From Actinomycetota bacterium (lineage in GTDB: Bacteria > Actinomycetota > Acidimicrobiia > IMCC26256 > JACPCJ01), in NCBI GenBank assembly GCA_016179865.1, contig JACPCJ010000099.1, positions 3,786 through 67,785 of the forward strand: a stretch of 64,000 nt of DNA, given 5' to 3'. Each line of letters begins with the position of its first letter. Positions within the stretch are counted from its first letter, which is position 1. Shown here one piece after another: positions 1,440 through 16,880 of the stretch. A program made the position numbers and the translations under genes. The notes below the pieces were generated by a model. It was not told where the DNA came from and made no database searches. It saw nothing but the letters and a program-made list of their open reading frames with translations.

Positions 1440-1670
1440 ATGACGAAGACGGTCCAGATCCGCAACGTGCCCGACGACGTCCACGCAACCCTGCGAAGCC
1501 GTGCCGCGGCTGCGGGCCGGTCGCTCTCCGACTACCTCCTCGAGGAGATCGAACGGGTCGCACGACGGCCGCCAATCGCCGACGTCCTCCTGCGGGCGAG
1601 TGAACGCGACTGGGGGATCCCGCCCGGCGAGGCGGGCCGGGTTGTCCGGGAGCTTCGTGACGAGCGCTGA
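1440..1670 (+). CDS. FitA-like ribbon-helix-helix antitoxin
   Basis: MTKTVQIRNVPDDVHATLRSRAAAAGRSLSDYL; immediately upstream of a PIN gene. Confidence 0.85.
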   Translation: MTKTVQIRNVPDDVHATLRSRAAAAGRSLSDYLLEEIERVARRPPIADVLLRASERDWGIPPGEAGRVVRELRDER

Positions 1671-1673
1671 GCG

Positions 1674-2063: not shown

Positions 2064-2068
2064 CCGGA

Positions 2069-2437: not shown

Positions 2438-3237
2438 GCCACCCGCCGCCCCTCGCGGAGGACATTGATCACGACGGGCCTCGCGGGGTGCTCCGTTTCC
2501 TCCTCAGCCACGGCGAGCGCCGAGAGAACGGTCCTGTTGGCGACGGAGTGGTTCCAGAGCACCTCGTCCATCCGCCTGGTCTCCTCGAACGGAGAGGTCA
2601 CCGTGTCCAACACGACGAGAAGGTCGATGTCGGATTCGGGGTGGGCGTCGCCTCGCGCCCAGGAGCCGAACAGGATCACCTGGCGCAGGCGGGCGCCGTA
2701 CAGCTTCTTCAAGTCGGCCGCCGCCGCCTCGGCGATGGCGACGGGGTCGAAATGGCCCGACAGTTCCTCGGGTTCGGGGTCGGTGAGTTGGGCCAAGGCC
2801 GCCTCACCTTCCACGGGGTCGATGAGCTCCTCTTTCAGCAGCCATTCGATCGCCCGGCGTTCCATCCGCGTGTCGTGGAATGCGAACCATGCTTCCCGCA
2901 GCTCAGGGAACTCGAAGAGCGTGTCCTTGAAGCGCCGGAAGGCCCCCCGGCCCTCGATGGCACGCTGGAGCAGGTCACGGGCGCGCGGATCGCTGACCCG
3001 GGCTGTGAAGTCAGCGAGGTCCTGGTAGGCCTCGTGCGAACCGATTGGGTCGATGAACGCCAGCCCTCGCTCGTCGGGCTCCTCCTCCCCCTGTTCCCGG
3101 AAGTAGTCGTTCCAGAGCACGACCTCGCCGGTCTGGGGGTCGAGCCACCACGAGGAGTCGCCTGAGTTGTCCTCGAGGGCCTCGGCAACAGCAGACAGAT
3201 CAACCTTCGAGAGTTCGAGCATCGTCATCGCCTTCAT
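2434..3237 (-). CDS. UPF0158-like domain fused to minimal nucleotidyltransferase (MNT)
   Basis: N-part WWLDPQTGEV..AIEGRGAFRRFKDTL..W; C-part LFGSWARGDAHPESDIDLLVV (GSx10DxD); start among ATG 3237/3228/3222. Confidence 0.8.
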   Translation of the reverse strand: MKAMTMLELSKVDLSAVAEALEDNSGDSSWWLDPQTGEVVLWNDYFREQGEEEPDERGLAFIDPIGSHEAYQDLADFTARVSDPRARDLLQRAIEGRGAFRRFKDTLFEFPELREAWFAFHDTRMERRAIEWLLKEELIDPVEGEAALAQLTDPEPEELSGHFDPVAIAEAAAADLKKLYGARLRQVILFGSWARGDAHPESDIDLLVVLDTVTSPFEETRRMDEVLWNHSVANRTVLSALAVAEEETEHPARPVVINVLREGRRVA

Positions 3238-3268
3238 CACGCTCGGAAACTCTCGCGATCCTACCGGG

Positions 3269-4060
3269 CTACCCCGTCCGTGCGCGCGCCGCGGGCTTCG
3301 GGGCGAACAAGGCCAGTGCGCCTCCCACCAGCGCCGCGTACACGCCGACGCCGAGGGTCTCGAACAGGCCGGGGGCGGGGCCGAAGTCGCCCACGGAGTC
3401 GAGGATGCGGGCAACCTGGATCATGAAGAGGAGCGCCGCAACGGCGGCGGCGGCGCCCGCGATGCGGCGAAGCACGTGCAGCGCGGGCGAGAAGGAGAGG
3501 GCGAGCGTGGCCGCGCCCAGCAGGAGCACCAGGACTCCCACACTGAAGCCGCCCTCGGCCGTGCTCTCGTAATCGAAGAGCAACGCCGCCCCGGGCTTGA
3601 AGGCGTTCTCCGTCTCACCGAGGAAGTCGAGCCAGGGCAGCACGATCGAGAGGATGGTCAGGGCGGACCCGATGATGGCCAGCACGAGCCCGGCCTGGGA
3701 GCCACCGCTCTGGACGGCGGGAGAGGTCGACCACGCGGGAACCGAGGCGGCCAGACCAGCGGGTGGCGCCTGCCCTACCGCCTGCGCTGGTGGCGTTCCC
3801 GGGGGCGGGACGGGAATCACCGCCGTGGCGCCCGAGGGAGGGGTGGCGACCGGCGGAGGCGGTGCGGGTGCGGGTTGGACGATCAGCCGGCTGGCGTCGA
3901 CCCAGCCCGACCAGCCGTTGGACGCCTCGACCCGGGCCCAGCCGCCGCGCTGTTCTGCGATCTGCAAAGGGGTCCCGGCGGCGAGCGTGGCGACCGGCGG
4001 CTGCGATGGGTCAGGGGTGGCCCACGCCTGGATCCCTCCCGGCGGGGCGGCATGCGCCAT
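3269..4060 (-). CDS. SH3-like domain + Pro-rich linker + ~4-TM membrane protein
   Basis: GGIQAWATPD..LAAGTPLQIAEQRGGWARVEASNGWSGWVDASRL followed by four hydrophobic segments. Confidence 0.75.
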   Translation of the reverse strand: MAHAAPPGGIQAWATPDPSQPPVATLAAGTPLQIAEQRGGWARVEASNGWSGWVDASRLIVQPAPAPPPPVATPPSGATAVIPVPPPGTPPAQAVGQAPPAGLAASVPAWSTSPAVQSGGSQAGLVLAIIGSALTILSIVLPWLDFLGETENAFKPGAALLFDYESTAEGGFSVGVLVLLLGAATLALSFSPALHVLRRIAGAAAAVAALLFMIQVARILDSVGDFGPAPGLFETLGVGVYAALVGGALALFAPKPAARARTG

Positions 4061-4063
4061 GGG

Positions 4064-4693
4064 TCAGCCTCGGGGAACCAAACGACCGGCGTCGACCCAG
4101 CCCGCCCAGCCGTTCGAGGCCTCCACGTGAGCCCAACCTCCCCGCTGTTCGACGAGGCGAAGCTCCGTTCCCGCCGCCAGTGTGGCCACAGGCGCCGGCG
4201 CAGGGTCGGGGTCGGCCCAGGCGTACATGCCCCCGTCGGGAGCCACGTGGGTGGCGGCAAAGACCGGAGCGGGCGCCGGTGCAGGCGCAGGGGCCGGGGC
4301 TGGCTGGGGTGCGGGCTCGGGAGTCGGGGCCGGCGTCGGAGCAGGTGCCGGCTCGGGCGCGGGAGTCGGAGCAGGAGTCGGTGCCGGGGCGGGCTGGTTG
4401 ACGGGCTGGGCCGTCGGAAGCGGCTCGGGCGCGGGAGTCGGGGCGGGCGCGGGCTGGGCAACCGGTTCCGGTGCCGGGGCGGGCTGGGGTGCCGCCCTCG
4501 CCACCAGACGCGAGGCGTCGACCCATCCCATCCAGCCGTTCGAGCACAGCACCTGTCCCCACTGGCCCCGCTGTTCCATGAGCTGGACGTCGAGCCCCTC
4601 GGTCAGGTTGGCCGCTGGGGCCTGGCTGGGGTCGGGGTCCGCCCAGGCAGGCAGGCCGCCCTGGGGGACGTCATGAGTCGGGCTGTAGGCCAC
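4064..4693 (-). CDS. Tandem SH3-like domain protein with Pro/Ala/Thr repeat linker
   Basis: Two copies of THxxPxGGxxAWADPD..GW.GWVDA.RL; GTG 4693 has GGAGGT 7 nt upstream and matches the paralogue starts. Confidence 0.8.
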   Translation of the reverse strand: MAYSPTHDVPQGGLPAWADPDPSQAPAANLTEGLDVQLMEQRGQWGQVLCSNGWMGWVDASRLVARAAPQPAPAPEPVAQPAPAPTPAPEPLPTAQPVNQPAPAPTPAPTPAPEPAPAPTPAPTPEPAPQPAPAPAPAPAPAPVFAATHVAPDGGMYAWADPDPAPAPVATLAAGTELRLVEQRGGWAHVEASNGWAGWVDAGRLVPRG

Positions 4694-4904
4694 CGCACGC
4701 ACCTCCGCTGAGTCCGATCGCGGTCCTGGAACCTACCGCGACCGGAGCCCAGCTCGCGGTCCCCGGGAGATCGGCAGCCGCCCAGGACGCCGCCGCCGAA
4801 AGGTCATCTACCCCCGTCCCAGCACCGGTTCGTGACCCTTACGGCGTCCAGCGTCGCCCGACGGCGGGGTGCATCGAGGCGATCTCGGCGTCATGATTCC
4901 GGGC

Positions 4905-5000
4905 GTGGCTCGCGTGCATGAGGGGTGCATGGTGATCGCCGACATCGGCGGCTACACGCGCTACCTCAAGTCGGTCGAGCTCGAGCACGCCCACGACGCT
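4905..5000 (+). pseudogene. N-terminal stub of a DUF2652-like (cyclase-fold) gene
   Basis: ARVHEGCMVIADIGGYTRYLKSVELEHAHDA resembles the IADISGYT..ELEHA start of this family; similarity stops at the 5005 palindrome. Confidence 0.6.
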
Positions 5001-5004
5001 TGGG

Positions 5005-5052
5005 CCTTGTGCCGGATATTCGGCGCTCAGCGCCCATGGATCCGGCAAAAGG
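5005..5052. repeat. 48-bp palindrome (family D), possible terminator of mce
   Basis: CCTTGTGCCGGAT / ATCCGGCAAAAGG arms (12 of 13 paired), inner GGCGCT-C-AGCGCC hairpin. Confidence 0.7.
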
Positions 5053-5070
5053 TCAGGAAAACGGGGGCGG

Positions 5071-5508
5071 TTATTCCTGGACGAGTTCGACGAGAGTGCC
5101 GAAGGCGGTCTTGGGGTGGAGGAAGGCCACGGTGGTGCCCCGCGAGCCCGTCCGCGGGTGCTCGTCGACGACCCGGGCCCCCTGCGCCTTCACGTGCTCC
5201 AGCACCTGATCGCAGTCGTCAACGCGGTAGCCGACGTGATGGATGCCCTCGCCGTTGCGATCCATGTACTTGGCCAGGGGCGAGTCGTCCCGGAAGGGCG
5301 TCAGGAGCTGGATGTAGGAGTCGGCCACCTTGATGAGGGCCTCGTCGACGCCGTCGCTCTCGATCCGCTCCCAGTGGAGGACGGTGGCGCCGAACATCTC
5401 CTCGTACCACTCGACGGCGGCGTGGAGGTCGGCAACGGCGATGCCGACGTGGTCGAGCTCCGTGAGCACGCCTGAGCTCGCGTCAGCCTGGGAATGGCCG
5501 CTGCTCAT
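5071..5508 (-). CDS. mce: Methylmalonyl-/ethylmalonyl-CoA epimerase (VOC fold)
   Basis: LDHVGIAV..IQLL..GEGIHHVGYRV..AFLHPKTAFGTLVELVQE; coupled to ccr. Confidence 0.9.
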   Translation of the reverse strand: MSSGHSQADASSGVLTELDHVGIAVADLHAAVEWYEEMFGATVLHWERIESDGVDEALIKVADSYIQLLTPFRDDSPLAKYMDRNGEGIHHVGYRVDDCDQVLEHVKAQGARVVDEHPRTGSRGTTVAFLHPKTAFGTLVELVQE

Positions 5509-6857
5509 GTGCCGTGGTGGCGGAAGAGGGTGATCTTGTCCTCGCCAACCCGGGCCCGAAGCTCGGGGTCATCGATCCCCAGCCCCTCCTCGGGGGCGAG
5601 GCAGAGCACACCGAGCTTGCCCTCGTGCAGGTTGTGGTGGATCTGGGCCGCCGCCTCCCCCGTGTCGGTGAGCGGGTAGACGGCGGAGAGGATGGGCTGG
5701 ACCTTGCCCTCGCACACGAGCCGGTTGGCGTCCCAGGCCTCGCGGTAGTTGGCGAAATGCGACCCCTTGATGGTCTTGAGGTGCATCCAGAGATACCGGT
5801 TGTCGTACTCGATCATGAACCCGCTGGTGGCGGCGCAGGTAACGATCGTCCCGCCCCGCTTGCACACGAACACCGAGGCACCCATGGTCTGGCGGCCGGG
5901 GTGCTCGAACACGACGTCGGCGTCGGCCCCCGCCAGCTCCCGGATCTTCTTTCCGAGCCGCAGCCACTCCTTCGGGTCCTGCGTGTGCTCGTCGGACCAG
6001 AAGTGGTACCCCTCGGCCAAACGGTCGATCACGCATTCGACGCCCAGCTCGTGGAGCAGCTCGACCTTCTCAGGTGAGGAGACGACGGCAACGGGCGTGG
6101 CCCCGGCGTTGAGCACGTACTGGCAGGCGTAGCCGCCGAGGCCGCCGGAAGCACCCCACACTAGGACCGTCTGGCCCTGGGTGATCTGGCTGCCGTTGGG
6201 CGACACCAGCATCCGGTAGCTCGTGGAGTTGGTGAGCCCGTTGCAGGCCGCCTCCTCCCAGGACAGGTGGGTGGGCTTGGGCATGACCTGGTTGGCCTTG
6301 ACTACGGCAAGGTCAGCGAGGCCGCCGTAGTTCGACTCGAAGCCCCAGATGCGCTGGTTGGTCGCCAGCATCGAATCGTCGTGCGACGACGGGTCCTGGT
6401 CGTCCACGTAGTTGCAGTGCACGGTGACCTTGTCGCCGGGTGTGAAGGTGCGCACGGCCGATCCCACCTTCAGGACCACCCCGGCGGCGTCGGACCCGAT
6501 GACGTGGAAAGGCTGGTCGTGCCGGGCCCCCCAGGCGCTCTCCCGGCCCAAACGCTCGAGAAAGCCGAACGTCGGGAGGGGCTCGAAGATCGACGTCCAG
6601 ACGGTGTTGAAGTTGATGGCGGACGCCATGACGGCGAGGAACACCTCGTCGGGTGCCAGCTCTGGAGTCGGGACGTCCTGCACGTGCACCGACTTGCGGG
6701 GATCCTTCTCGTCCGACGGCATGCCGGCGAACATCTCGGACTCGTCTTTGAGCACCACCGCCGCCCGGTAGGACTCGGGAATCTCGACGGCGCCGAACTC
6801 CTCGGCTGGGGCGCCGTCGGCCAGCAGGCGAGGAACGTCGGTCAGTTGGTGAGCCAT
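5505..6857 (-). CDS. ccrA: Crotonyl-CoA carboxylase/reductase
   Basis: AVMASAINFNTVW, HVIGSDAAGVV, QRIWGFESNYGG, WGASGGLG, VFEHPGRQT, DNRYLWM. Confidence 0.93.
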   Translation of the reverse strand: MAHQLTDVPRLLADGAPAEEFGAVEIPESYRAAVVLKDESEMFAGMPSDEKDPRKSVHVQDVPTPELAPDEVFLAVMASAINFNTVWTSIFEPLPTFGFLERLGRESAWGARHDQPFHVIGSDAAGVVLKVGSAVRTFTPGDKVTVHCNYVDDQDPSSHDDSMLATNQRIWGFESNYGGLADLAVVKANQVMPKPTHLSWEEAACNGLTNSTSYRMLVSPNGSQITQGQTVLVWGASGGLGGYACQYVLNAGATPVAVVSSPEKVELLHELGVECVIDRLAEGYHFWSDEHTQDPKEWLRLGKKIRELAGADADVVFEHPGRQTMGASVFVCKRGGTIVTCAATSGFMIEYDNRYLWMHLKTIKGSHFANYREAWDANRLVCEGKVQPILSAVYPLTDTGEAAAQIHHNLHEGKLGVLCLAPEEGLGIDDPELRARVGEDKITLFRHHGT

Positions 6858-6985
6858 GCCGCGCACCGTAGCGGCGCCCCCCGGCCGCGTGCATACGGGC
6901 CCGAACCCCCGCTATGTGTCAGCGAAGGTCGTGGAGCAGCGCGTCATGACAGGAAGCGGCGGGATCAGGAGGCCTGTTGACCCGG

Positions 6986-7492
6986 TCAGGTGGCCTGGAG
7001 ATAGGCCTCCATGCCCTGGGCCTCGTGGAACTTGCAGTACAGGCGGTACACGCCGGGTCCGGGCCCCTGGTTGTTGAGAGCCTCGGTGGCGTTGTTGGCA
7101 CCGGGGTCGAGGTCGGCGTCGAGGTACTCCTCGGCCGGGTTGGCGACCCGCTGAAGGGTGACGTTGTGCGTCACGGTGCCCCCGTTGGTGACGTTGAGTC
7201 CCTGGTCGGCCGACATCGAGATGCAGGACGGCTCGAACCGGAAGTCGGCGGCGGCGATCTCGACCGAGGGGCCCTCCGGTGCCGTCGTGGGTCGGCAGGG
7301 AAGCTCGGGCTCCGTCGTGGTCGTGGTGTCGGACGCCCGGCTCGTCGGGGGCGCGACGGGCGCCGCGTCACCTCCCGTCGAGGCCGTCACACCCGCCGTA
7401 GTCGACGCTGAGGTCTTTTCGCCGTCGGACGAACACTGGATCAGGACGAATCCGAACGTCGCACACATCACGACGCGAAACGCTCGCTGCAC
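6986..7492 (-). CDS. Exported cupredoxin-domain (lipo)protein
   Basis: Hydrophobic N-terminus ending LIQC; HNVT..YCKFHEAQGM type-1 Cu ligand pattern. Confidence 0.75.
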   Translation of the reverse strand: MQRAFRVVMCATFGFVLIQCSSDGEKTSASTTAGVTASTGGDAAPVAPPTSRASDTTTTTEPELPCRPTTAPEGPSVEIAAADFRFEPSCISMSADQGLNVTNGGTVTHNVTLQRVANPAEEYLDADLDPGANNATEALNNQGPGPGVYRLYCKFHEAQGMEAYLQAT

Positions 7493-7546
7493 GAGGCGGC
7501 AGGCTAGTGGACACGAAGGGGAGGTTCGTCCGAAGCACTCGCGAAA

Positions 7547-8128
7547 TCAGGAGCCCCGGAGAGCGACCGGAGTCCAGGCGGGCCAGTCTGCATCGCCGAC
7601 GAGGTCACCGCAGGCGTACGTCGCGATGCGCCTGAACGCCTTGTCAGAGGAAGTGTTGTCGTACACATACGAGGTGTCGGCGATGGCGATAGCGGCCGCG
7701 ACCAAGTCCCAGAGGCGCTGATATCGGCTACGGATCTTGTCTTCGGGCACATCGTGACCGTCCTCGTTGGCAACCCGGTCGGCAACGCGAGCTACGGCGC
7801 CGTCCTCGGGTACGGCCAGAACGTGAAGCGTCACGTGGTAGCCAGCTTCTTGGGCACGCTGCACGAAGTCGACCTTGGAAGGCTGAGAAAACACCGTCTC
7901 GGCAACGAATGACTCGCGTCTGGCAACGAGCTGATCCCGAGCCTGCTCGGCGAGCTGCGCCGCCTCGTAGGCATGTGCGGCTGCGTCATCGGGCCAGTGC
8001 TCGGCGGCGATGAGGTCTGCGTTGACGAAGGGCAGATGAGTCCTCGGGTACAGCACCCGGTTGTAGAAGGTGGTCTTTCCTGCGCCGTTGGGCCCGGCGA
8101 CGACGTGAAGGACGGGATCCTCTGTCAC
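7547..8128 (-). CDS. Zeta-toxin-like P-loop kinase/ATPase
   Basis: VVAGPNGAGKTT, FVNADLIA, ETVFS, GHDVPEDKIRSRY, YDN. Confidence 0.85.
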   Translation of the reverse strand: MTEDPVLHVVAGPNGAGKTTFYNRVLYPRTHLPFVNADLIAAEHWPDDAAAHAYEAAQLAEQARDQLVARRESFVAETVFSQPSKVDFVQRAQEAGYHVTLHVLAVPEDGAVARVADRVANEDGHDVPEDKIRSRYQRLWDLVAAAIAIADTSYVYDNTSSDKAFRRIATYACGDLVGDADWPAWTPVALRGS

Positions 8129-8497
8129 CTATGCGCGGCTGACCGTCTCCCGGCGGACAAGCGTGCCGTCGGGCGCGATGTCGATCCAGGTGCGTCGGCC
8201 CGTGGCGGCGAACTCGGAAGCGAGGTCGATCCCGCCGGCCACGGCATCGAGCCGGTTCGTCCACTCAGCCCGCACGACGGCCTGGTCCTCTGCGTTCAGC
8301 GAGTCGTAGGACTCGTGACCGGCAAGCACGGCGGCGATTGCGTGCGCCGAGATGTGGCGTGACGCCTCCACCTCCCGGCCGACGCGCGCCCAGTGGGCGA
8401 TCTGTTGAGCGGCACTGCGCGACTGGCGACTCCCGGCGAGCTTCGCAGTGCCCAGCAACTCGGCGTCGATGCGGATGGGCGTCGTGCTGTGCTTCAT
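8129..8497 (-). CDS. ParD-like antitoxin
   Basis: IRIDAELL..RSAAQQIAHWARVGREVE; abuts the kinase gene. Confidence 0.8.
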   Translation of the reverse strand: MKHSTTPIRIDAELLGTAKLAGSRQSRSAAQQIAHWARVGREVEASRHISAHAIAAVLAGHESYDSLNAEDQAVVRAEWTNRLDAVAGGIDLASEFAATGRRTWIDIAPDGTLVRRETVSRA

Positions 8498-8516
8498 GGG
8501 GTCCCCTCCGACGGGA

Positions 8517-8551
8517 GTAGCTATCTGCTACATAACGTAGCATTTCGCTAC
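8517..8551. promoter_or_regulatory. Tandem operator of the ParD-like/zeta operon
   Basis: GTAGC-N5-GCTAC twice with a 5-nt gap, ~20 nt upstream of the start. Confidence 0.65.
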
Positions 8552-8625
8552 AGCCGCGTCGCGTGATGTCGCGAGACACCGGAGACACGGTGTGGGAGAC
8601 CACTCGGCGCCCTCGGCAACTGGGC

Positions 8626-9543
8626 TCATCGACCACCCGTTGACGCTGCCGAGCGGGCGGCAGCAAAGAAGGCCTCGACGGCCGGGTCGCGCCGTCGGGA
8701 CTCCCGGTAGAGCCAGACGGTCTCGGTCATCGCCCTGCCCTCAAAGGTGAGCGTGCGCACCGGTCGGGTCGGGATGGCGTCGTTGGCGACGATGGCGGTT
8801 CCCACTCCGTGGTCGGCCAGAGCGAGGAGGGCAGCCGGACTGCTGCTCTCGACCTCGATTCGGGGCTCGAAGCCGGCAACGCGACACGCCGCCTCCAGCC
8901 GCTGCCGGGAGAAGTACCCCGGAGGGCTCACAACGAGCGGCACATCGCGCAGCGCGGTGACGGCTACGCGGGAACGTCGCGCGGTGGGCTCCTTCGCGTC
9001 GCGCAACGGGGGAACGGCGACGACGGTGACCTGATAGGCGGCGAAGCCGTCGAGGTCGGTGGCGTCCTCGACCGGCGGGCTGGTGATCACATCGGTGGCC
9101 CCAGCGCGAAGGAACCCGACAAGCGAGGTCGACGGGTCGACGGCCCCGGAACCCTCGAGCCCGTACTCACTGATTTCGATGGCGATCTTTGGATGGCTCT
9201 CCCGGAAGGCGGCGATCACGGGAGCGAGGAAGACCACGATGTGTGGCGCGAAGCAGCCGACCCGGACCCGGCCCGTCTGTCCCAAGCGCAACTCGTGGGC
9301 GAGCGTTCGGATGCGGCCGGCCCCGCCGAGGAGTTGGTCGGCCCGGTCCAGGAGGAGCAGCCCCGCGGCGGTGATCCGCACCCGGCGCCCCACCCGCTCG
9401 AACAGCGCGACGCCCAGCTCGCGCTCGAGTTCGTGCACCTGCTTCCACATCGCCGGTTGGGCGATGTGGAGCCGCCGTGCGGCCGCCGTATAGGTGCCTT
9501 CGCGCGCAACGGCCGAAAAGTACTCGAGCTGGCGTAACTCCAC
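8626..9543 (-). CDS. LysR-family transcriptional regulator
   Basis: ELRQLEYF..AARRLHIAQPA..LERELGVALFER..TAAG HTH; divergent from a membrane protein gene. Confidence 0.92.
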   Translation of the reverse strand: MELRQLEYFSAVAREGTYTAAARRLHIAQPAMWKQVHELERELGVALFERVGRRVRITAAGLLLLDRADQLLGGAGRIRTLAHELRLGQTGRVRVGCFAPHIVVFLAPVIAAFRESHPKIAIEISEYGLEGSGAVDPSTSLVGFLRAGATDVITSPPVEDATDLDGFAAYQVTVVAVPPLRDAKEPTARRSRVAVTALRDVPLVVSPPGYFSRQRLEAACRVAGFEPRIEVESSSPAALLALADHGVGTAIVANDAIPTRPVRTLTFEGRAMTETVWLYRESRRRDPAVEAFFAAARSAASTGGR

Positions 9544-9646
9544 GATCCAAATACTATCTGTAAAGAAGCAAACTCATGCGATCTATGTAGTGGCAGAATC
9601 GATGACGCCGTCTTACCGTCGAAGGCGACGAGAGGAGAGCGTCACC

Positions 9647-10333
9647 ATGAAACCAGTCGCAGGCGGGCGGGCCGCCGTCATCACGGGAATCGGGCTTGCC
9701 CTCTTCCTGCCCCTGTTCACCGCGGTGCTTCCGGCGGCCGGGCTGACCCAGGCCAATCTCAGCGATCCGACCGAACTCGATGCCTTCGTACGCCACCACT
9801 GGGCCCTCTTCACCCTGCCCTACCTCGACGGACTGATCCTGCACGTCGCCGGGTTGGTCGCGGTGATCGCCGTATACCGGCGCTTGGCCGATCGGTCGCC
9901 GTGGGTGATGCCCGCCACCATCGGTGGACTGGCGTGGATGGTGCTCGACGTCGCCCAGAACGGCACCGGCCTCTACGCCTCCCATGAGATCGTCTCCCAC
10001 GCCACTTCGGCCGTGTCCGGCCCGCAACTGGTGCTCGTCGGCCACCTCACGACCGGACTTCGATTGGCGGGGCACGTCTTCGGGGGCCTGTGGGTGCTCG
10101 TGATCGGCGCCGTCGCACTCCGCCAGGGTGGCCTGCCTCGCGGAATGGGATGGCTGGGGGTGGCGGCCGGCGCATTGATGTCGCTCAACGTCGCCATCCC
10201 CCCGACCCAGTTCCCGCTGTTCGTGCTGCTGCCCGTCTGGTTCATCTGGCTCGGAGCCACGCTGGTACGCACGGGGGCCGCCACCGACCCGGTGCAGGAC
10301 GCCGCGACGGAGCCCGCGGGGAGTCTTCGATGA
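9647..10333 (+). CDS. DUF4386-like integral membrane protein
   Basis: ~6 hydrophobic helices, LPRGMGWLG..VWFIWLG; AGAGGAG upstream of ATG 9647. Confidence 0.7.
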   Translation: MKPVAGGRAAVITGIGLALFLPLFTAVLPAAGLTQANLSDPTELDAFVRHHWALFTLPYLDGLILHVAGLVAVIAVYRRLADRSPWVMPATIGGLAWMVLDVAQNGTGLYASHEIVSHATSAVSGPQLVLVGHLTTGLRLAGHVFGGLWVLVIGAVALRQGGLPRGMGWLGVAAGALMSLNVAIPPTQFPLFVLLPVWFIWLGATLVRTGAATDPVQDAATEPAGSLR

Positions 10334-10375
10334 ACGCGCGCCCGTACAGGCTGCGCGGATAGGTCACGCTGGTCG

Positions 10376-10412
10376 TGCGAAACGACTTCCTGGGCAGGCT
10401 TCGCCTGCCCAG
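10376..10412. repeat. 37-bp hairpin element, copy 1
   Basis: TGCGAAACGACTTCCTGGGCAGGCTTCGCCTGCCCAG; 34/37 identical to 52324-52360. Confidence 0.75.
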
Positions 10413-10423
10413 ACGCCTTCACG

Positions 10424-10476
10424 CCGTTCTCGGGCAAGTTACCCACGTCCCGGGTGGGAAACTTGCCCGAGAACGG
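10424..10476. repeat. 53-bp palindrome (family B) between convergent genes
   Basis: Perfect 17-bp arms CCGTTCTCGGGCAAGTT / AACTTGCCCGAGAACGG, 19-nt spacer with CCCAC/GTGGG. Confidence 0.85.
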
Positions 10477-10486
10477 AGAGGAGGGG

Positions 10487-11143
10487 TCAGACGATGCGGC
10501 GGTCGCTGGCCCAGCGCGACAGCTCGTGGCGGTTGGAGAGCTGGAGCTTCCGCAGCACCGCCGAGGCGTGGGTCTCGACCGTCTTCACCGAGATCGAGAG
10601 CTGGCCGGCGATCTCCTTGTACGTGTAGCCCCGGGCGAGGTAGCGGAGCACGTCGCGCTCGCGGGCCGTGAGCTGGTCGAGGTCGGCGTCACCGGTCGCG
10701 GGCCCGTCACCCGAGAGTGGGTCGGCAAAGGCGTCGAGCACGAACCCGGCCAGCCGGGGTGAGAAAACGGCGTCGCCGTCGCGCACCCGCTCGATGGCGG
10801 CGACCAGTTCGGGCCCGGTGATGGTCTTGGTGACGTATCCGCGAGCCCCGGCCCGGATCACGCCGATGACGTCCTCGGGGGCGTCGGAGACCGACAGGGC
10901 GAGGAAACGGACGTCGCCATTCTTCGCCAGCACCTCCTCGATCACGGCCCGGCCGCCGCCGCCCGGCATATGAACGTCGACGAGCACCACCTCGGGTTGG
11001 CGCTCCAGGACCAGCTCGACGGCGGCCGCCACCTCGTCGGCCTCGCCCACCAGCTCCACGGCGTCGCCCAGCTCGGCCTTGACGCCCGAACGGAAGAGCT
11101 GGTGGTCGTCGACGAGGAACACCTTCGGCCTGGTTTCAGGCAT
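10487..11143 (-). CDS. NarL/LuxR-family response regulator
   Basis: LVDDH, VLVDVHMP, GARGYVTK, LTARERDVL..KTVETH. Confidence 0.93.
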   Translation of the reverse strand: MPETRPKVFLVDDHQLFRSGVKAELGDAVELVGEADEVAAAVELVLERQPEVVLVDVHMPGGGGRAVIEEVLAKNGDVRFLALSVSDAPEDVIGVIRAGARGYVTKTITGPELVAAIERVRDGDAVFSPRLAGFVLDAFADPLSGDGPATGDADLDQLTARERDVLRYLARGYTYKEIAGQLSISVKTVETHASAVLRKLQLSNRHELSRWASDRRIV

Positions 11144-12431
11144 TGGAGGGGGCCTGCTCCCCGCTCTGCGGGGCCGCTCGGGCCCCGGGCATCATCAGTT
11201 CGACTTCGGCGCCCTCGCCGAGGGTGCTGCGCACGTTGGCGCTGCCCCCGTGACGCTGCATGCGGCCCCGGATCGACTCGGCGATGCCCTGGCGGTCAGG
11301 CGGCACCGTCTCGGGAATGAAGCCGGCCCCCCGATCCCGTACGTAGGCGGTCACGCCCCCGCCCGTCACCTCGACGTAGACCGAGACGGTGGGCGCGCCC
11401 GAGAACTTCGCCGCGTTGACCATCGCCTCCTTGGCGGCACTCACCAGCGCTTCGAGGCGCTCGTCGAGACCGGCGTCACCCACCGTCACGACGTCCACGA
11501 CGACGCCGAAGAGGTCTTCCACCTCGGCTGCGGCTCGGCTCATGGCGGCCTTCAGCGTGACGCCGTCGGTCGCGGGCGCCACGCCGAACAGCCAGTCCCT
11601 GAGTTCACGCTCCTGACGGCGGGCCAGGCGCGCCGTCTCGGTGGCGTCGCCCGCCTTCTGTTGGATCAGCGCCAGGGTCTGGAGCACGGAGTCGTGGATG
11701 CGAGCGGCGACCTCGGCGCGCTCCTCGGACCGGATCCGGCGCCGGCGCTCCTCAACGAGGTCGCGCCCCAAACGCAGCCACCAGGGGCCGAAGATGAGGA
11801 GCAGGCCGGTGATGGTGAGGCCCACGGCAAGCCCCACGTCGCCGATCTCGTGCCACTCGGTGTTGGCGATGCCGAAGACGACGATCCCGACCGTCACCGC
11901 CACGATCCCGACGCCAATGCGCAGGAGCGCCCGCCGGTTCTCGTGGACGCCGAGCCCCCGGCGCAGAGCCAGGCCCGTCGACTCGGGCCACACGAGGGCC
12001 AGCCCGCCGGCCGCGAGCACGAGGGGCCAGATGAACTTGTCGCCGATCCAGAGTCCGGTCTCCCGGAGCAGGAGCAGCGTGCCGAGCGACAAGAGGACGA
12101 TCGCCAGCACGCGCTGCGACCGGTCGCGGGCGCTGCCCGTCCCCATCTTGGCGGCGACCGAGCGGCCGTTGTCGTCGGGCATCCCCACCCACAGGGCGCC
12201 ATAGAGCACCGCGCCGAAGCCGCCGCTCAGCCCGAGGACCACGAAGGCAACGCGCACGATCACGGGGTCAATCCCGAGCCAGCGGGCGAGCCCCGCGCAC
12301 ACGCCCGCGACGATGCGCTCGTCCGAACTCCGGGCGATGGAGCGGGCGCTGCGGGCTGGTGTGGGGGTCGAGGAAGTGCCTTCCGTACCCCGATGATCGC
12401 GCGCTCGGCAGGGCTCCTCTATGAGGGGCAC
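11136..12431 (-). CDS. PspC-domain sensor histidine kinase
   Basis: IVAGVCAGLARWLGIDPVIVRVAF (PspC), several TMs, ARIHDSVLQTL H-box, NAAKFSG, VRDRGAGF; start uncertain. Confidence 0.88.
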   Translation of the reverse strand: MPLIEEPCRARDHRGTEGTSSTPTPARSARSIARSSDERIVAGVCAGLARWLGIDPVIVRVAFVVLGLSGGFGAVLYGALWVGMPDDNGRSVAAKMGTGSARDRSQRVLAIVLLSLGTLLLLRETGLWIGDKFIWPLVLAAGGLALVWPESTGLALRRGLGVHENRRALLRIGVGIVAVTVGIVVFGIANTEWHEIGDVGLAVGLTITGLLLIFGPWWLRLGRDLVEERRRRIRSEERAEVAARIHDSVLQTLALIQQKAGDATETARLARRQERELRDWLFGVAPATDGVTLKAAMSRAAAEVEDLFGVVVDVVTVGDAGLDERLEALVSAAKEAMVNAAKFSGAPTVSVYVEVTGGGVTAYVRDRGAGFIPETVPPDRQGIAESIRGRMQRHGGSANVRSTLGEGAEVELMMPGARAAPQSGEQAPSNA

Positions 12432-12481
12432 CCCTGAGAACCATCGGGGTGCCTCAGGGATCGTTCAGGGTCTCCCCTCAT
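12421..12481. promoter_or_regulatory. Array of TCAGGG/CCCTGA boxes between divergent pspC-type genes
   Basis: TGAGGG-N4-CCCTGA (12422-12437), TCGGGG 12444, TCAGGG 12454, TCAGGG-N4-CCCTCA (12465-12480); ~10-11 bp phasing. Confidence 0.65.
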
Positions 12482-12516
12482 TCACGCCACGCACGGTTCA
12501 GGCGCACGATGAGCGC

Positions 12517-13707
12517 ATGAACGACCAGGCGAACGAGACCCCTCAGCCCACGCCTACCCAGCCTGCGGTCGCCCGGCCCCGCCGCCTCACCCGGAGTGTC
12601 GACGACAAGGTCGTGGCCGGCGTCGCCGGGGGCCTGGGCGAGTACTTCGGCGTTGACCCCGTCGTCTTCCGCATCGGCTTCGTGGCCGTCACACTCCTCG
12701 GGGGGTCGGGAATCCTGCTCTACCTGGTGGGGTGGCTGGTCCTCCCAAAAGGTGACGGGGGTCGGTCGGTCGGTAGTGATCTGGTCCGGCGCGGCTCGGC
12801 CCCCACGGTCATCGGCGCCCTCCTCATCGGGCTGGCGATCCTCTTCCTCGCCCACGACACCTTTCATTGGGGCGCGGGGCGCCCCCTCCTGTCGCTGGCC
12901 CTGATCGGGTCGGGCGCGGCGCTGCTCTGGTGGCGAGCCGACGCTAGGGGCGACGACATCGCGTCGGCGCCTCCCTCTCCGCGGGTGCCCCCTTCCCGGG
13001 TAGCCCCGACGCCGCCCGAGGTGCCGCCCGAGATCCCTCCGGCCCCTCCTGTTCCCCCTGTCCCCAGCCCGCCGCCTCCCTCGACGCCGCCGCGGAGGCC
13101 GCGGCGATCGCCCCTCGGGCGGGCCACGCTGGCCGTGATCCTCATCATGGGGGGGCTGGCCGGCCTGGCTGACGCCGCCGAGGTCGCCGACGTCAGCGCT
13201 GACGGAGTGGTCGCCGGCGCCCTGATCATCACCGGGCTCGGCCTGGTCGTCGGTGCGTTCTGGGGTCGGGCCAAGTGGCTCATCATCGTGGGTGTCATCC
13301 TCACGCTCGTCCTCGGCGGCGCTTCCACGTTCGACGTCCCCCTGGAAGGCGGATTCGGCGAGCGACGCTCGGTTCCCGACGACTTGAGCGAGGTGCGCCC
13401 CGAATACCGGCTCTTCGCCGGCGAGCTTCGCCTCGACTTCAGCCGGGTCGACTTCCCGGCCCGCACCACCCGGATCGAGGCCAGCGTGGGCTTCGGCGAG
13501 CTGTGGGTCGAAATCCCCGAGGGCGTGACCGTGGTGGCTGACGCCCACGTCGACGCCGGTCAGGTGCGGGTGCTGGGCGAGCGAGACGACGGCCTCGACG
13601 CCCGGGCCCGGCGACGGGTCGATGGGCCCGCGGGATCGGGGCGGCTCGTGCTCGAACTTCGAGTCGGTGGCGGCGAGATCCACGTCACCAGCGGAGGTGA
13701 ACGGTGA
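12517..13707 (+). CDS. PspC-domain membrane protein with LiaF-like C-terminal domain
   Basis: RSVDDKVVAGVAGGLGEYFGVDPVVFRIGF; TMs; Pro-rich linker; GELRLDFS..VGFGELWVEIP. Confidence 0.85.
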   Translation: MNDQANETPQPTPTQPAVARPRRLTRSVDDKVVAGVAGGLGEYFGVDPVVFRIGFVAVTLLGGSGILLYLVGWLVLPKGDGGRSVGSDLVRRGSAPTVIGALLIGLAILFLAHDTFHWGAGRPLLSLALIGSGAALLWWRADARGDDIASAPPSPRVPPSRVAPTPPEVPPEIPPAPPVPPVPSPPPPSTPPRRPRRSPLGRATLAVILIMGGLAGLADAAEVADVSADGVVAGALIITGLGLVVGAFWGRAKWLIIVGVILTLVLGGASTFDVPLEGGFGERRSVPDDLSEVRPEYRLFAGELRLDFSRVDFPARTTRIEASVGFGELWVEIPEGVTVVADAHVDAGQVRVLGERDDGLDARARRRVDGPAGSGRLVLELRVGGGEIHVTSGGER

Positions 13708-13928
13708 ACCGGCATGGCCTCGACGTGACGTCGCTGATTGCAGGACTCGTGTTCGTCGGCCTCGGCGCCGCCTTCCTGTCCGACGCCGTCACGGGCTTCA
13801 ACCTCCAGGTGCGCTGGGTGTGGCCCTCGCTTCTCCTCGGCCTCGGCTTCGCCTTCCTGCTGTCGGGGGCGCGGCGGGGCGAGGGCGGCGGCGACGACGG
13901 AGAGGCGCCGTTGGGCATCGACTCGTGA
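13704..13928 (+). CDS. Small 2-TM membrane protein
   Basis: DVTSLIAGLVFVGLG..WVWPSLLLGLG; GTGA overlap and GGAGG upstream. Confidence 0.7.
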   Translation: MNRHGLDVTSLIAGLVFVGLGAAFLSDAVTGFNLQVRWVWPSLLLGLGFAFLLSGARRGEGGGDDGEAPLGIDS

Positions 13929-14103
13929 TGAGCCCCTCCAACGTCCACGAGCTGCTCGCCCGGTGGACGAGCCTCGTCGAACGCCAAGCCCGTCGGAGCC
14001 AGCCCCGACCCGCACTGGAGCCGGCCTGGGAGCGGGCCAAGGCGAACTCATACACTGACGGCCCCGGCCCCGCGCAGGGTCCGGTTCCGTCAGGAGGAGC
14101 ACC

Positions 14104-15281
14104 ATGCCCGGTTCCGTGATCATCGGCACAGCCCGTACCCCCATCGGCAAGCTGTCGGGAGCGTTCTCCGACTTCTCCGCCATGGACCTGGGCGGGGTCG
14201 CGGTCAAGGCCGCCCTCGAGCGGGCGGGCGTGGCGCCCGATGCCGTGAACTACGTGATCATGGGCCAGGTGCTCCAGGCCGGGCAGGGGCAGATCACCGC
14301 CCGCCAGGCGGCCGTGAAGGCCGGCATTCCCATGAGCGTGCCGTCGATCACCATCAACAAGGTGTGCCTGTCGGGGCTCAACGCCATCTACCTCGCCGAC
14401 CAGATGATCCAGGCGGGTGAGGCCGACATCGTGGTGGCCGGGGGCATGGAATCGATGACCAACGCCCCCTACATCCTCGACAAGGCCCGCGCCGGGTACC
14501 GGATGGGGAACGGGGAGCTCATCGACTCAATGGTCAATGACGGTCTGTGGTGCGCCTTCGACTGCGTGCGGGGTCGGGCACGGAGAAGTACGCCGCCCAG
14601 TACGCCGTTCCTCGGGAGCGCCAGGACGAGATGGCGGCCAAGAGCCACGAGCGGGCGGCCAACGCCATCAAGGAAGGCCGCTTCGAGACCGAGATCGCGC
14701 CGGTCGAGGTGCCCCAGCGCAAGGGCGATCCCATCGTCGTCGACACCGACGAGGGCGTGCGCCCGGAGACGACCGTCGAGTCGCTCGCCGGCCTTCGCCC
14801 CGCCTTCGGCGAAGGGGGCACCATCACGGCGGGGAACGCGTCCCAAATCTCCGACGGCGGCGCCGCCGTCGTCGTGACGAGCAAGGAGAAGGCCGAGCAG
14901 CTCGGCGCCGAGCCCCTCGCCGAGCTGGTGTCCTTCGGCATGGTCGCCGGCCCCGACCCGTCGCTCATGACCCAGCCCAGCCGGGCCATCGCCCAGGCCC
15001 TCGAGCGCGCCGGCAAGCAGGTCGGCGACGTCGACCTGTTCGAGATCAACGAGGCCTTCGCCGCCGTCGGGCTGGCGTCGATGGACGAGCTGGGCGTGAC
15101 CGACGAGGTGGCCAACGTCAACGGCGGGGCCATCGCCCTCGGCCACCCGGTCGGGATGTCGGGCACGCGGGTCGCGCTGACCCTGCTGCATGAACTGCGC
15201 CGTCGCGGCGGCGGCCTCGGCGCCGCCGCCCTCTGCGGCGGCGGCGGGCAGGGCGACGCCGTCCTGCTCCAGACGCTTTAG
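14104..15281 (+). pseudogene. Acetyl-CoA C-acetyltransferase (thiolase), frameshifted at ~14569
   Basis: ORF 14104 has ARTPIG, TINKVCLSG, GGMESM; ORF 14547 has GNASQISDG, EINEAFA, NGGAIALGHP, LCGGGGQG; the join lacks the usual HM of the HMG motif. Confidence 0.88.
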
Positions 15282-15322
15282 GACGCTCACCGGGTCGGCT
15301 GAGGGCGACTAGCGTCCGTTTC

Positions 15323-16072
15323 GTGGCCTTTCAACCGACGCACGTGGTGCCCCAGGGAGGCCTGCCCGCGTGGGCGTCGCCCGACGGGTCCCTGCCACCC
15401 GCGACCAATCTCGAACCCGGCACCGAGCTCGCGGCCGGCGAGGTGCGGGGGGAGTGGATGTTCGTGACGGCTGAGAGCGGGTGGTCGGGCTGGGTCGACG
15501 GATCGGGGCTGGTAGCCGCGGGCGCCATCATGACCGCCGGCCCTCCCGGCGCTGCGCCGCCGGCGCTCATCTCCGGACAGCCCGACGCCGTGGTGCTCGG
15601 CGGGCAGGTCTGGCCGCTGGCCTCGATCGGCCAACGCATCGGGGCCCGCGTCCTCGACACGATCATCATCTTCGCCGCCACCATGGTCTTCGTGTTCATC
15701 GGTGCCGCGCTTTTCCTGGGCGGCCTGGGGTCGGGCGACAGCGACGCCTTTGGCGCCGGTGTTTGGTTCTTCATTCTCACCGGTATCGTCGGTCTCGCCG
15801 GCGGCATCCTCTACGAGGCGCTGTTTGTCAGCGCCAAGGGAGCAACGCCCGGAAAGATGATGGTCGGGATCCGAGTGGCCGCCATCGAGACCGCCGGAAA
15901 CCCCACGTTCGGCAAGGCCTTCCTGCGCTGGCTCATCCCGTGGGTCGCCAACCTCCTTCCCTACGCCGGATTCCTCGTGTCGATCCTCGTCTACCTCTCG
16001 GCCACGTGGGGTCAGAACCGCCGCGGATGGCACGACATGGTCGCCTCGACCGTGGTGCTGCGCAGCCGGTGA
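15323..16072 (+). CDS. SH3-like domain + RDD-family membrane protein
   Basis: [22 protein letters not shown]; then [39 protein letters not shown]. Confidence 0.85.
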
Positions 16073-16082
16073 CGAAGCCCCA

Positions 16083-16601
16083 GTGACCTTCCAACCGACC
16101 CACGTCGTGCCCCAAGGAGGGCTCCCCGCGTGGAACACGCCGGATGGCTCGCATCCACCGGCGGCCACCCTCGCCCCGGGTACCGAGCTCCAGCTCGTGG
16201 AACAAAGGGGGGCGTGGGCAAGCGTCGCCGCCTCCAACGGCTGGCGGGGATGGGTCAGCGCCGCCTATCTCGTGGCCCGAGCCGGCCCGCCGCTCGCCGG
16301 CACTGTCGGCTATCCCCAGCCCGCTCCCGGCGGGTGGGTGCCGCCGCAACAGCAGCCGCACTACGCCCCCCGCACCAACGGCATGGCGGTGGCGTCCATG
16401 GTGCTCGGGATCCTGTGGCTGTACTGGCTGGGGTCGATCCTGGCCCTGATCTTCGGCTACGTGGCCAAGAGCCAGATCGACCAGTCGCGGGGGACCCAGG
16501 GGGGCCGGGGCATGGCCGTCGCCGGAATCGTCCTCGGGTGGGTCGGCGTGGGCACCCTGACCATCGTCATTCTCATCGCCGTCGCCGCCTCGACTTCCTA
16601 A
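16083..16601 (+). CDS. SH3-like domain + DUF4190 membrane protein
   Basis: [23 protein letters not shown]; then [37 protein letters not shown]. Confidence 0.85.
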
Positions 16602-16816
16602 GCCTCGATCCACCGATCTGAGCGGCCGAGGGGCGTGACGAAGGCTGTCGGCGGCTTCTCGAGCGAGTTCTGCACCTCGCGACGCACGGCGCCTTGCTCC
16701 AGAACGCGTCCCGTGGTCAGCAGGCGCTCGGGAGAGCGCGGAGCCGGACGGCGGCGCCGTGGAGGGCCCAGTTCCTCGCTGTCGGGAGTTGTCTTCCGCG
16801 GAAGAGTGACCTCGTC

Positions 16817-16867
16817 GTTCTGGAGCAAGTCTGCATGCGTGGCCGGGTCGAGAACTTGCTCCAGAAC
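16817..16867. repeat. 51-bp palindrome (family B) at the recR 3' breakpoint
   Basis: Perfect 14-bp arms GTTCTGGAGCAAGT / ACTTGCTCCAGAAC; a further half-copy CTTGCTCCAGAAC at 16693-16705. Confidence 0.85.
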
Positions 16868-16880
16868 AGCGGGAAGCCGA

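Follow-up and report, generated by a model that had tools for sequence, protein, structure and literature searches.

Bacterial SH3 (SH3b) domains are textbook extracellular cell-wall anchors, and those of cell-wall hydrolases recognise the peptide stems of peptidoglycan; the classical consensus reads L-N-V-R-S-G-P. A cytoplasmic SH3-like barrel is found in the third domain of DtxR / FeoA, including in an actinobacterium, and has been reported to bind the protein's own Pro-rich stretch. Here we describe an SH3-like module of 60-65 residues that occurs in five copies, in four genes (A to D), on a 64,000-nucleotide stretch of DNA (the window: positions 3,786 to 67,785 of contig JACPCJ010000099.1, assembly GCA_016179865.1) from a groundwater actinobacterium. 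Going by its Pfam matches and its predicted structure, the module is a genuine SH3b domain, and it apparently represents a separate, undescribed SH3b subfamily. It is most probably cytoplasmic, and we infer that it serves as an adaptor that docks the proteins carrying it. Taken as one package, the fold, the cytoplasmic side and the docking or adaptor role are on balance probable.

The module and its subfamily

The source assembly comprises 2.5 Mb in 144 contigs and is about 70% complete; across the first 20 kb of the window the GC content is 67-74%. A hidden Markov model (HMM) was built from the five copies and run against a six-frame translation of the assembly (31,787 frames). The features of the four genes are as follows (E, E-value with this HMM; TM, transmembrane helix; aa, amino acids).

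3269-4060, minus strand: gene A, 263 aa
3878..4060, minus strand: SH3b module of gene A, an N-terminally shortened copy (aa 1-61)
3695..3877, minus strand: Pro/Ala-rich linker of gene A (aa 62-122; 18 Pro in 61 residues)
3269..3694, minus strand: 4-TM domain of gene A, predicted claudin-like fold, N-in/C-in (aa 123-263)
4064-4702, minus strand: gene B, 212 aa, two modules and no hydrophobic helix
4499..4702, minus strand: first SH3b module of gene B (aa 1-68; domain E 3.1e-38)
4259..4498, minus strand: Pro/Ala-rich linker of gene B (aa 69-148; 35 Pro and 23 Ala in 80 residues, 44% and 29%)
4067..4258, minus strand: second SH3b module of gene B (aa 149-212; domain E 2.7e-35)
4064..4066, minus strand: TGA stop of gene B, in frame with the ATG of gene A (4058-4060)
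15323-16072, plus strand: gene C, 249 aa
15323..15517, plus strand: SH3b module of gene C (aa 1-65; E 1.4e-33)
15518-15616, plus strand: linker of gene C, 33 aa
15617..16072, plus strand: RDD membrane domain of gene C (Pfam RDD, 88.5 bits)
16083-16601, plus strand: gene D, 172 aa
16083..16277, plus strand: SH3b module of gene D (aa 1-65; E 8e-37)
16278-16382, plus strand: linker of gene D, 35 aa
16383..16601, plus strand: DUF4190 two-helix hairpin of gene D (Pfam DUF4190, 72.1 bits)

The original prediction had placed five module copies in these four genes. The open reading frames are present at these positions, the copies align (50-67% identity to the first copy, 22 invariant columns, 70% mean column identity), and the HMM recovered all five with domain E-values of 3e-38 to 2e-33. 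It also detected a sixth copy on another contig (C63, E 4e-14) and, below E 0.1, no further one in the whole assembly, which gives a genome total of six copies across five genes. Such E-values, together with the near-absence of other matches in the six-frame search, place the five-copy family far beyond chance. The start of gene B is probably the GTG at 4693, which follows a GGAGG with an 8-nt spacer and gives M-A-Y-S-P-T-H.

The SH3-like character of the module was confirmed by Pfam, with membership defined as a whole-protein score at or above the curated gathering cut-off. Gene A passed for SH3_4 (33.1 bits, cut-off 24.1), SH3_3 (31.8, cut-off 27) and SH3_16 (26.7, cut-off 25.8); gene B for SH3_16 (35.5) and SH3_4 (33.6), with its best stretches at residues 161-208 and SH3_3 just below the cut-off (26.7); and gene D for SH3_3 (28.5). 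Gene C had no Pfam SH3 match at E<=1, and its module was placed in the family by 50% identity to copy A and by its predicted fold. AlphaFold2 (AF2) models were obtained for A (36-sequence alignment, mean predicted local distance difference test score, pLDDT, 85.6) and for C (15 sequences, mean pLDDT 83.0). In both, the module was modelled with high scores (pLDDT 94-98 and 92-96, respectively) and the same strand pattern, and pLDDT fell to 50-67 over most of the A linker and to 55-63 in the C linker. When the models were used as queries in an all-against-representatives structure search, the best match was the SH3_3 domain of the phage phiSM101 endolysin Psm (4krt_B), with Z 9.2, a root mean square deviation (rmsd) of 1.6 A and 62 aligned residues for A (residues 1-62), and Z 9.7, rmsd 2.0 A and 65 aligned residues for C (residues 1-66). 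BT_1314 (3pvq) followed, with Z 8.8 (A) and 8.9 (C), and the other top matches were the SH3b domains of NlpC1, LytB and InlB.

At the level of sequence the relationship is more distant. A search of PDB sequences with the module profile gave nothing below E 0.01 (best E 0.011), Foldseek gave nothing against the PDB at E<=1e-3, and the ESM Atlas returned only generic SH3_3/SH3_4 clusters. Weak profile similarity to the SH3 domains of CIP4 and Abl was seen at E 0.011-0.04. No NCBIfam model fits the module; only TIGR04211 touches it, below its cut-off.

The module profile matched 2615 representative clusters, 1055 of them at E<=1e-10, a figure that is an upper bound since classical SH3b proteins score too. 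The best 150 were analysed; 129 carry a full-length module and 21 partial matches only. Across 41-42 copies from several phyla the near-invariant residues are P-T-H-x-V-P-x-x-G-[ML]-x-A-W-x-x-P-D ... E-x-R-G-x-W-A-x-V ... N-G-W-x-G-W-V-D, and the mark of the subfamily is an N-terminal extension, aromatic-x-x-T-H-x-V-P-x-G-G. Classical exported hydrolases with SH3_3 repeats (NlpC/P60, glucosaminidase, amidase_3) match profile positions ~20-65 only, about two thirds of the module, and their total scores are high only because many partial matches are summed. The module's own N-terminal extension and the partial matching of the classical hydrolases thus argue for a separate subfamily. The original prediction had opposed the module to characterised extracellular SH3b families that are exported and bind peptidoglycan: the family match is there, in the Pfam SH3b models and in the wall-binding SH3b domains that are its nearest folds, but no sign of export was seen.

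Side of the membrane

The carriers had been predicted to lack a signal peptide and, indeed, a hydrophobic-segment scan of A-D found none at the N-terminus. In all four proteins the module begins at or beside the initiator Met, and the first hydrophobic segment starts at residue 123 in A, which has four helices, at 114 in C and at 106 in D; B has none. The same holds widely in the family: of the 129 representatives with a full module, 56 lack hydrophobic helices altogether, 66 have helices that are not N-terminal, and the 7 with an N-terminal helix include classical exported proteins such as P0114. In 74 of the 129 the module starts within the first 15 residues. Their architectures fall into these classes (number of representatives).

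Module(s) then 3 or 4 TMs: 40
Soluble two-module: 33
Soluble one-module: 18
Module(s) then 1 or 2 TMs: 16
Module-4TM-module: 6
2TM-module: 4, one of which (P0070) is really signal peptide, ectodomain and one TM
Three-module: 3
Four or more modules: 2
Other arrangements: 7

Topology was judged from hydrophobic segments, from counts of basic (K/R) versus acidic (D/E) residues and from architectures. The 4-TM class gave a consistent picture in 36 homologues: loop 2 (78 K/R, 5 D/E) and the C-tail (84 K/R, 12 D/E) are positive in 36/36, and loops 1 (30 K/R, 95 D/E) and 3 (4 K/R, 67 D/E) are acidic, which puts the N-terminus of this class on the cytoplasmic side. Architectures point the same way. 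P0070 runs from a signal peptide through an ectodomain of ~800 aa with HEFGH, a TM and QRRRRF to two modules; in P0051, P0084 and P0099 two TMs and a K/R-rich stretch precede the modules; and P0072 reads module, zinc ribbon, RRKDK, TM. In the sixth copy of the window's genome the module lies N-terminal to RRGKKK, a single TM flanked on its other side by DDDGD, and an acidic C-terminal domain of ~180 residues, an ectodomain with one homologue only and no family match.

Fusion partners were recorded in a domain scan of 134 of the 150 representatives (16 long partial-match proteins were omitted) and 37 frames from related loci. Relatives of the module are fused to zinc ribbons (P0015, P0035, P0072, P0096, L086), to the class III cyclase domain Guanylate_cyc (P0075), to cNMP_binding (L075, P0273) and to TPR (P0058, P0101). 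Pfam found no hydrolase domain in A-D, and none was present in any scanned full-module protein without a leader; hydrolase partners were confined to long partial-match proteins (P0009, P0010, P0043, P0047) and to P0114, a full-module protein with a signal-like leader.

For gene C, the model has short strands at residues 89-99, 183-187 and 243-247. If these formed one sheet, the N-flank (2 K/R), loop 2 (5) and the C-tail (4) would share a side, with 11 K/R against 0 in loop 1, and the module of C would be cytoplasmic. A crude count over the 71 TM-bearing representatives agrees, with 321 K/R on the module side versus 169 opposite it and an excess on the module side in 49.

Several observations pull in the other direction. 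In 16 of these 71 proteins there are more K/R opposite the module (6 are equal); these contrary cases include DUF4190 and RDD proteins and proteins where the helix finder saw three of four helices. The DUF4190 hairpin is a particular difficulty: in 107 of 121 homologues its loop holds more K/R than both termini (loop 365, N-flank 100, C-tail 35), so that by the positive-inside rule the loop would be inside and the N-terminus, with the module of D, may lie outside. Among the 120 nearest DUF4190 homologues of D, 20 carry an N-terminal zinc ribbon, which argues for N-in, and we consider the side of gene D ambiguous. Moreover, the closest solved folds of the module are all cell-wall-binding domains.

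These points would fit ordinary extracytoplasmic SH3b domains, with N-tails translocated without a signal peptide, B exported non-classically and the carriers acting as peptidoglycan-bound wall anchors. Pfam SH3_3/SH3_4 membership would be expected of such proteins, a class B penicillin-binding protein (PBP) is encoded downstream of some module-4TM genes (see below), and E. coli ProW translocates an N-tail of 100 residues without a signal peptide. Against this stand the 36/36 statistics of the 4-TM class, the modules behind a positive stop-transfer flank in P0070 and the 2TM-module proteins, the cyclase, cNMP-binding, TPR and zinc-ribbon fusions, the 56 of 129 members with neither TM nor signal-like segment, and the confinement of full-module hydrolases to one protein with a leader; we regard an extracytoplasmic module as very unlikely. 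The original prediction of a cytoplasmic module, set apart from wall-binding SH3b, is therefore supported for the 4-TM class by its charge statistics, and more widely by the architectures and fusions of relatives; it is probable for C and left ambiguous for D.

Membrane partners, shuffling and the B/A junction

The predicted fusions to a 4-TM domain (A), RDD (C) and DUF4190 (D) were all found. RDD (PF06271, cut-off 24.1) covers residues 99-241 of C and profile positions 1-136 of 137, and DUF4190 (PF13828, cut-off 35) residues 101-161 of D. The four hydrophobic helices of A match no Pfam family at E<=1. Their model, which has two short strands in loop 1 and an N-in/C-in topology, resembled claudin-19 (Z 12.2, rmsd 2.8 A, 125 aligned), claudin-15 (Z 11.4), claudin-4 (11.3), a designed claudin fold (10.7), TARPs (~10) and Cav gamma (9.4); the top 8 VIA rows are all claudin/TARP/Cav-gamma chains (Z 12.2-9.4, 113-132 aligned). 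These values lie below the caution line of Z ~13 for helical bundles, the Foldseek E-values are only 0.011-0.016 and there is no sequence family match, so we call the predicted fold claudin-like rather than a claudin. The ESM Atlas gave only unnamed clusters below 0.9 for this domain; its feature score of 0.86 to a cluster of the Trp_oprn_chp family (PF09534, cut-off 29.6) is a lead only, A having no hit to that model at E<=1 and the relative P0111 reaching 24.0 bits. Stand-alone copies of the A-type 4-TM domain occur in two relatives (G029, G009). No paper on bacterial claudin-like proteins was found in the open-access literature searched. The RDD part of the C model (residues 95-249) came closest to 7t92_B, from the membrane part of the ubiquitin-ligase retro-translocon of peroxisomes (Z 11.8, rmsd 3.5 A, 143 aligned), a match that stays short of the caution line for helical folds.

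The linkers bear out two further statements of the original prediction. The two modules of B are joined by its 80-residue Pro/Ala rod, and Pro-rich stretches are present in the other carriers (Pro content 30% in the A linker, 18% in C, 26% in D) and in a nearby PspC protein (48%). Over the 129 representatives the median Pro fraction in the 40 residues after the module is 0.15.

By record titles, the 134 confirmed genomic relatives come from Acidimicrobiia, from other Actinomycetota (including three Streptomyces and Saccharopolyspora oryzae), from Dormibacterota (many) and from Chloroflexota. Of 151 genomes sampled from the window's class, 14 carry the module, with up to seven copies per genome; many have a single one, and the window's own genome has six. 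The family is thus expanded and carried on different membrane domains, as had been claimed, both in the three membrane fusions of the window and in the profile survey. Further partners are DUF7144 and the PrsW protease, the latter in 5 of the 37 frames scanned at related loci. In the syntenic order thiolase-[x]-recR-ybaB-dnaX, x is module-RDD plus module-DUF4190 in the window and module-DUF4234 in the relative G002; the membrane domain is swapped and the module kept. A tree of the modules (47 rows, 68 columns; L010:1774-1977 was left out for 18% identity and wrong coordinates) left 27 of 44 inner branches unresolved, but the first copy of B pairs with the first copy of G004 with support 100/99, so that at least this paralogue predates the genus.

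Some observations on these loci may be recorded here. Two loci (L015, L018) of record CAYTKN01..., titled 'uncultured Burkholderiales bacterium', show the same thiolase-module-recR-ybaB-dnaX and two-module-4TM arrangements as G002; the label looks wrong, the module of this record grouping with copies of the window's genome. The thiolase gene of the window (14104-15281, plus strand) is split into two frames near 14560, with Thiolase_N positions 2-151 and 154-259 in separate open reading frames. In runs X1 and X3 the contigs have an additional ACAT behind 14569 and an A>C change at 14529; by frame arithmetic the four added bases rejoin the frames, which points to an assembly error or strain variant and not a pseudogene. 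The summed contig depth in runs X1-X3 rises from ~6-8 to 27-47 at 10005-10471 and to 17-20 at 16543-17000, the latter being the 3' part of recR; these stretches are probably shared by other organisms or are repeats in the same samples.

The TGA of B is in frame with the ATG of A, with one codon between, and it falls four residues before the conserved His of the module. An aromatic residue (W, F or Y) fills this position in 127 of 129 instances of the module, and of the 85 internal instances 57 have W. Since the stop sits on a codon that is usually Trp, a single TGG-to-TGA change would split a gene with three modules and a 4-TM domain. The B stop is real: Logan contigs of three runs (X1, X3 and X4) bridge the TGA with zero differences. 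All four runs (X1-X4) come from one study, and X1 is perhaps the source sample. The copy in A had been noted as lacking its first residues; that is so, and the cause is this in-frame TGA on the module's conserved aromatic position. The A protein can be made on its own, given a GAGG 7 nt upstream of its ATG, which lies 4 nt downstream of the stop. UGA is a leaky stop when the next base is C, and a certain amount of fused protein may therefore be made. No RNA evidence is listed for the stretch.

Fused two-module-4TM genes stand at the equivalent locus in two relatives (G002, G027), and in G004 a two-module gene ends before pccB. B and A probably arose from one gene with three modules and the 4-TM domain, when the aromatic codon of its third module became a stop; A can restart at the ATG just beyond it. 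The original prediction saw in B a soluble bivalent adaptor with A, C and D as its partners; we found no evidence for this, and a single ancestral gene broken by a nonsense codon explains the pair better than a purpose-built adaptor and partner. So read, B/A would be a clean, read-verified gene fission by one nonsense codon with an adjacent restart codon. A conserved TGA read-through in the relatives was considered and rejected, as the '1 TGA' flags there proved to be ordinary gene ends and only the window's genome has an in-frame stop within a module array.

Two features of the surroundings were also noted. In the B linker (window 4293-4426, minus strand), contigs of runs X2, X3 and X4 carry 33 other letters in place of 132 nt; with an anchoring side of only 22 nt, this may be a length variant or a repeat collapse. 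Around the B-A locus (553-3414 and 7547-8497) there are dense toxin-antitoxin-like pairs (DUF5615, FitA-like/PIN, HEPN/nucleotidyltransferase with UPF0158, ParD-like/zeta toxin). In the relatives G001 and G004 a pccB-like carboxyltransferase gene follows the module gene instead, and the toxin-antitoxin genes may be insertions.

We propose that the module is a portable protein- or peptide-binding adaptor at the cytoplasmic face. A flexible Pro/Ala-rich linker ties the N-terminal module to a small multi-pass membrane domain or other partner: the claudin-like 4-TM domain of A, the RDD domain of C, the DUF4190 hairpin of D, a single TM with ectodomain in the sixth copy and a second module in B. 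Through the module, these membrane proteins would be recruited to a common partner in the cytoplasm or next to the membrane, as would soluble forms with two or three modules such as B, and the membrane domains could be exchanged while the docking function stays.

The shared partner might instead be the family itself. Modules would then bind each other or the family's Pro-rich linkers, with B cross-linking the membrane carriers into clusters, which amounts to the network of the original prediction minus PspC. Multi-copy forms are common (the two-, three- and four-plus-module classes and the six proteins in which modules flank the 4-TM domain on either end), a Pro-rich linker is present in all carriers, and B lies beside A and goes back to the same gene. 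However, the linkers are not docked on the modules in the AF2 models of A and C, no conserved linker motif was seen, Pro/Ala-rich linkers are generic in high-GC genomes and many genomes have but one module copy; self-association therefore seems improbable to us.

Neighbourhood, possible ligands and known systems

The original prediction raised a possible tie of the module network to envelope stress and pointed to the Pro-rich stretch of the nearby PspC protein. Between the two gene pairs (window 10487-13707) lie a LuxR-type response regulator (10487-11143, minus strand), a PspC-domain histidine kinase (11136-12431, minus strand) and a divergent PspC + LiaF-like protein (12421-13707, plus strand) with a 52-residue Pro-rich linker and 14 PxxP spacings. 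The arrangements conserved with the relatives are ccr-mce-B and thiolase-[module genes]-recR, and none of the PspC-kinase, LuxR regulator and PspC-LiaF genes was seen in the few kb around the relatives' module genes. We found no support for a link to PspC or to envelope stress. The bracketing of the ccr-mce / PspC / thiolase block by the two gene pairs looks like chance plus vertical synteny, because relatives keep ccr-mce and thiolase-recR beside the modules and PspC was not seen there.

Other neighbours are more informative. In one acidimicrobial family a gene for a class B PBP (MecA_N, PBP_dimer, Transpeptidase) lies directly downstream of a two-module-4TM gene on the same strand, at four loci (L031, L048, L053 and L066, where it is 54 nt away) and in three of the five genomes of family f31 (G041, G144, G160; not G078 or G082); these loci and genomes may overlap. 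Module-4TM genes adjoin genes of DUF6777 proteins in six genomes, namely G009, G027, G150 and those from which L019/L084, L074 and L081 come. These neighbours are single-pass N-in proteins with short polyproline cytoplasmic N-tails of the PPGPPPSGPP type, and DUF6777 looks like a sensor ectodomain. The window's genome has a single DUF6777 domain, which forms the ectodomain of a Ser/Thr kinase with PPGPPP in its juxtamembrane linker. This kinase (contig C74, ~22575-25085, L094) consists of the kinase domain, the Pro-rich juxtamembrane linker, one TM and the extracellular DUF6777; in many other members of the DUF6777 family the N-terminus carries a zinc ribbon or just a polyproline tail. In Streptomyces, all three loci (L093, L088, L068) encode in a row a two-FHA ABC transporter, a module protein of 227-250 residues and a soluble Ser/Thr kinase whose C-tail holds PPGPPP, with a 9-nt gap and a 4-nt overlap at L093 (1641-5651). 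The C-terminal ~150 residues of the Streptomyces module protein have no Pfam match. This layout recalls the mycobacterial PknF-Rv1747 operon (PMC3138270).

Taken with the cyclase and cNMP fusions, the recurring contexts assign the module to membrane-proximal signalling in the cytoplasm. As ligands, the best candidates, though speculative, are the juxtamembrane polyproline tails found in single-pass sensors and in Ser/Thr kinases. In the class sample, module and DUF6777 co-occur (9 genomes with both, 5 with the module only, 14 with DUF6777 only, 123 with neither; odds ratio 15.8, Fisher p 1e-5; the two samples were taken as identical because their per-family denominators agree). A co-evolution of the polyproline tails of DUF6777 proteins with the module was also considered and dropped, the control being negative.

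A number of findings count against such a docking role. The co-occurrence count ignores relatedness. DUF6777 proteins have Pro-rich tails equally often in genomes that carry the module and in genomes that lack it (15 proteins from each group, with a median Pro fraction of 0.21 for either), and the polyproline motif is present in 6/15 versus 7/15. The neighbours vary by lineage, with no single conserved partner, and the downstream PBP would fit an envelope or peptidoglycan ligand. In the profile alignment to eukaryotic SH3 domains, the stretch that corresponds to their PxxP-binding Pro and Tyr reads W-V-D-x-x-x-L, so that canonical PxxP binding is not expected by homology. The tail control and the absence of the canonical groove residues thus weaken the polyproline lead.

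A different ligand would be an envelope precursor (UDP-MurNAc-peptide, lipid I/II) or recycled muropeptides, bound by a cytoplasmic module at the inner face; this would link small membrane proteins, PrsW proteases and PBPs with the status of wall synthesis. Cell-wall hydrolases carry SH3b relatives, and these recognise peptide stems; the PrsW fusions, the downstream class B PBP and the neighbouring DUF6777 ectodomain proteins are in line with this possibility. On the other side, the kinase/FHA cassette of Streptomyces speaks for protein signalling, as do the fusions to cyclase, cNMP-binding and TPR domains, and the neighbours differ by lineage; we consider precursor binding unlikely.

The adaptor reading can be extended to an SH3/polyproline docking system of the Terrabacteria (Actinomycetota, Chloroflexota, Dormibacterota), built on the SH3b fold and analogous to eukaryotic SH3 adaptors. 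Modules on tetraspan, RDD, DUF4190, DUF4234 and PrsW proteins and in soluble forms with two to five modules would bind PPGPPP-type juxtamembrane tails of DUF6777 sensors and Ser/Thr kinases and form multivalent membrane signalling clusters, of which the Streptomyces cassette would be one unit. We would give this extended version only a small chance.

What is already known is the SH3b fold with its Pfam families. In the open-access literature searched, no paper was found on a cytoplasmic SH3b subfamily or on SH3 domains fused to RDD or DUF4190, and the literature reached describes neither the cytoplasmic placement and the N-terminal signature nor the set of orphan membrane partners and the soluble forms with several modules. 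A large cross-phylum SH3b subfamily acting inside the cell would widen the known uses of the fold in bacteria. The module would also offer a handle on common orphan membrane domains (RDD, DUF4190, DUF4234, claudin-like 4-TM), its ligand being likely what these proteins act on or are regulated by, and the Streptomyces cassette provides a culturable system for finding the partner.

Of the described systems, the closest are the SH3b domains of cell-wall hydrolases (SH3_3, PF08239; SH3_4, PF06347; Psm, 4krt), with which the module shares the fold, the Pfam models and a C-terminal G-W-x-G-W-V signature. Unlike them, it has neither signal peptide nor hydrolase partner, stands at the extreme N-terminus or behind a cytoplasmic stop-transfer flank, has its N-terminal extension and reads A-W-x-x-P-D where they have the L-N-V-R-S-G-P consensus. 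TIGR04211 (SH3_and_anchor; E. coli YgiM) likewise joins an SH3b domain to a membrane anchor, but the anchor of YgiM is at the C-terminus. The module proteins are not members (cut-off 65 bits; A 24.6, B 32.4, D 21.8, sixth copy 25.0, C no hit), and the papers found on YgiM concern its tail anchor, not the SH3 domain.

Zinc ribbons and DUF2510 on DUF4190-type domains show the same layout with different folds, a small N-terminal module followed by a Pro-rich linker and an orphan membrane domain; among the 120 nearest DUF4190 relatives of D, the zinc ribbon stands in 20, DUF2510 in 3 and the SH3 module in 1. Eukaryotic SH3 adaptors (Grb2/Nck) resemble the family in their multi-copy soluble forms, their Pro-rich neighbours and, for Streptomyces, the association with a Ser/Thr kinase; they have no homology-level match to the module, in which the PxxP-binding residues of eukaryotic SH3 domains are presumably not kept. 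Finally, the SH3-like domain of DtxR/FeoA belongs to another sequence family, which never matched in our searches, and is part of a metal-dependent repressor and not of membrane proteins, but it offers a precedent for the way of working proposed here.

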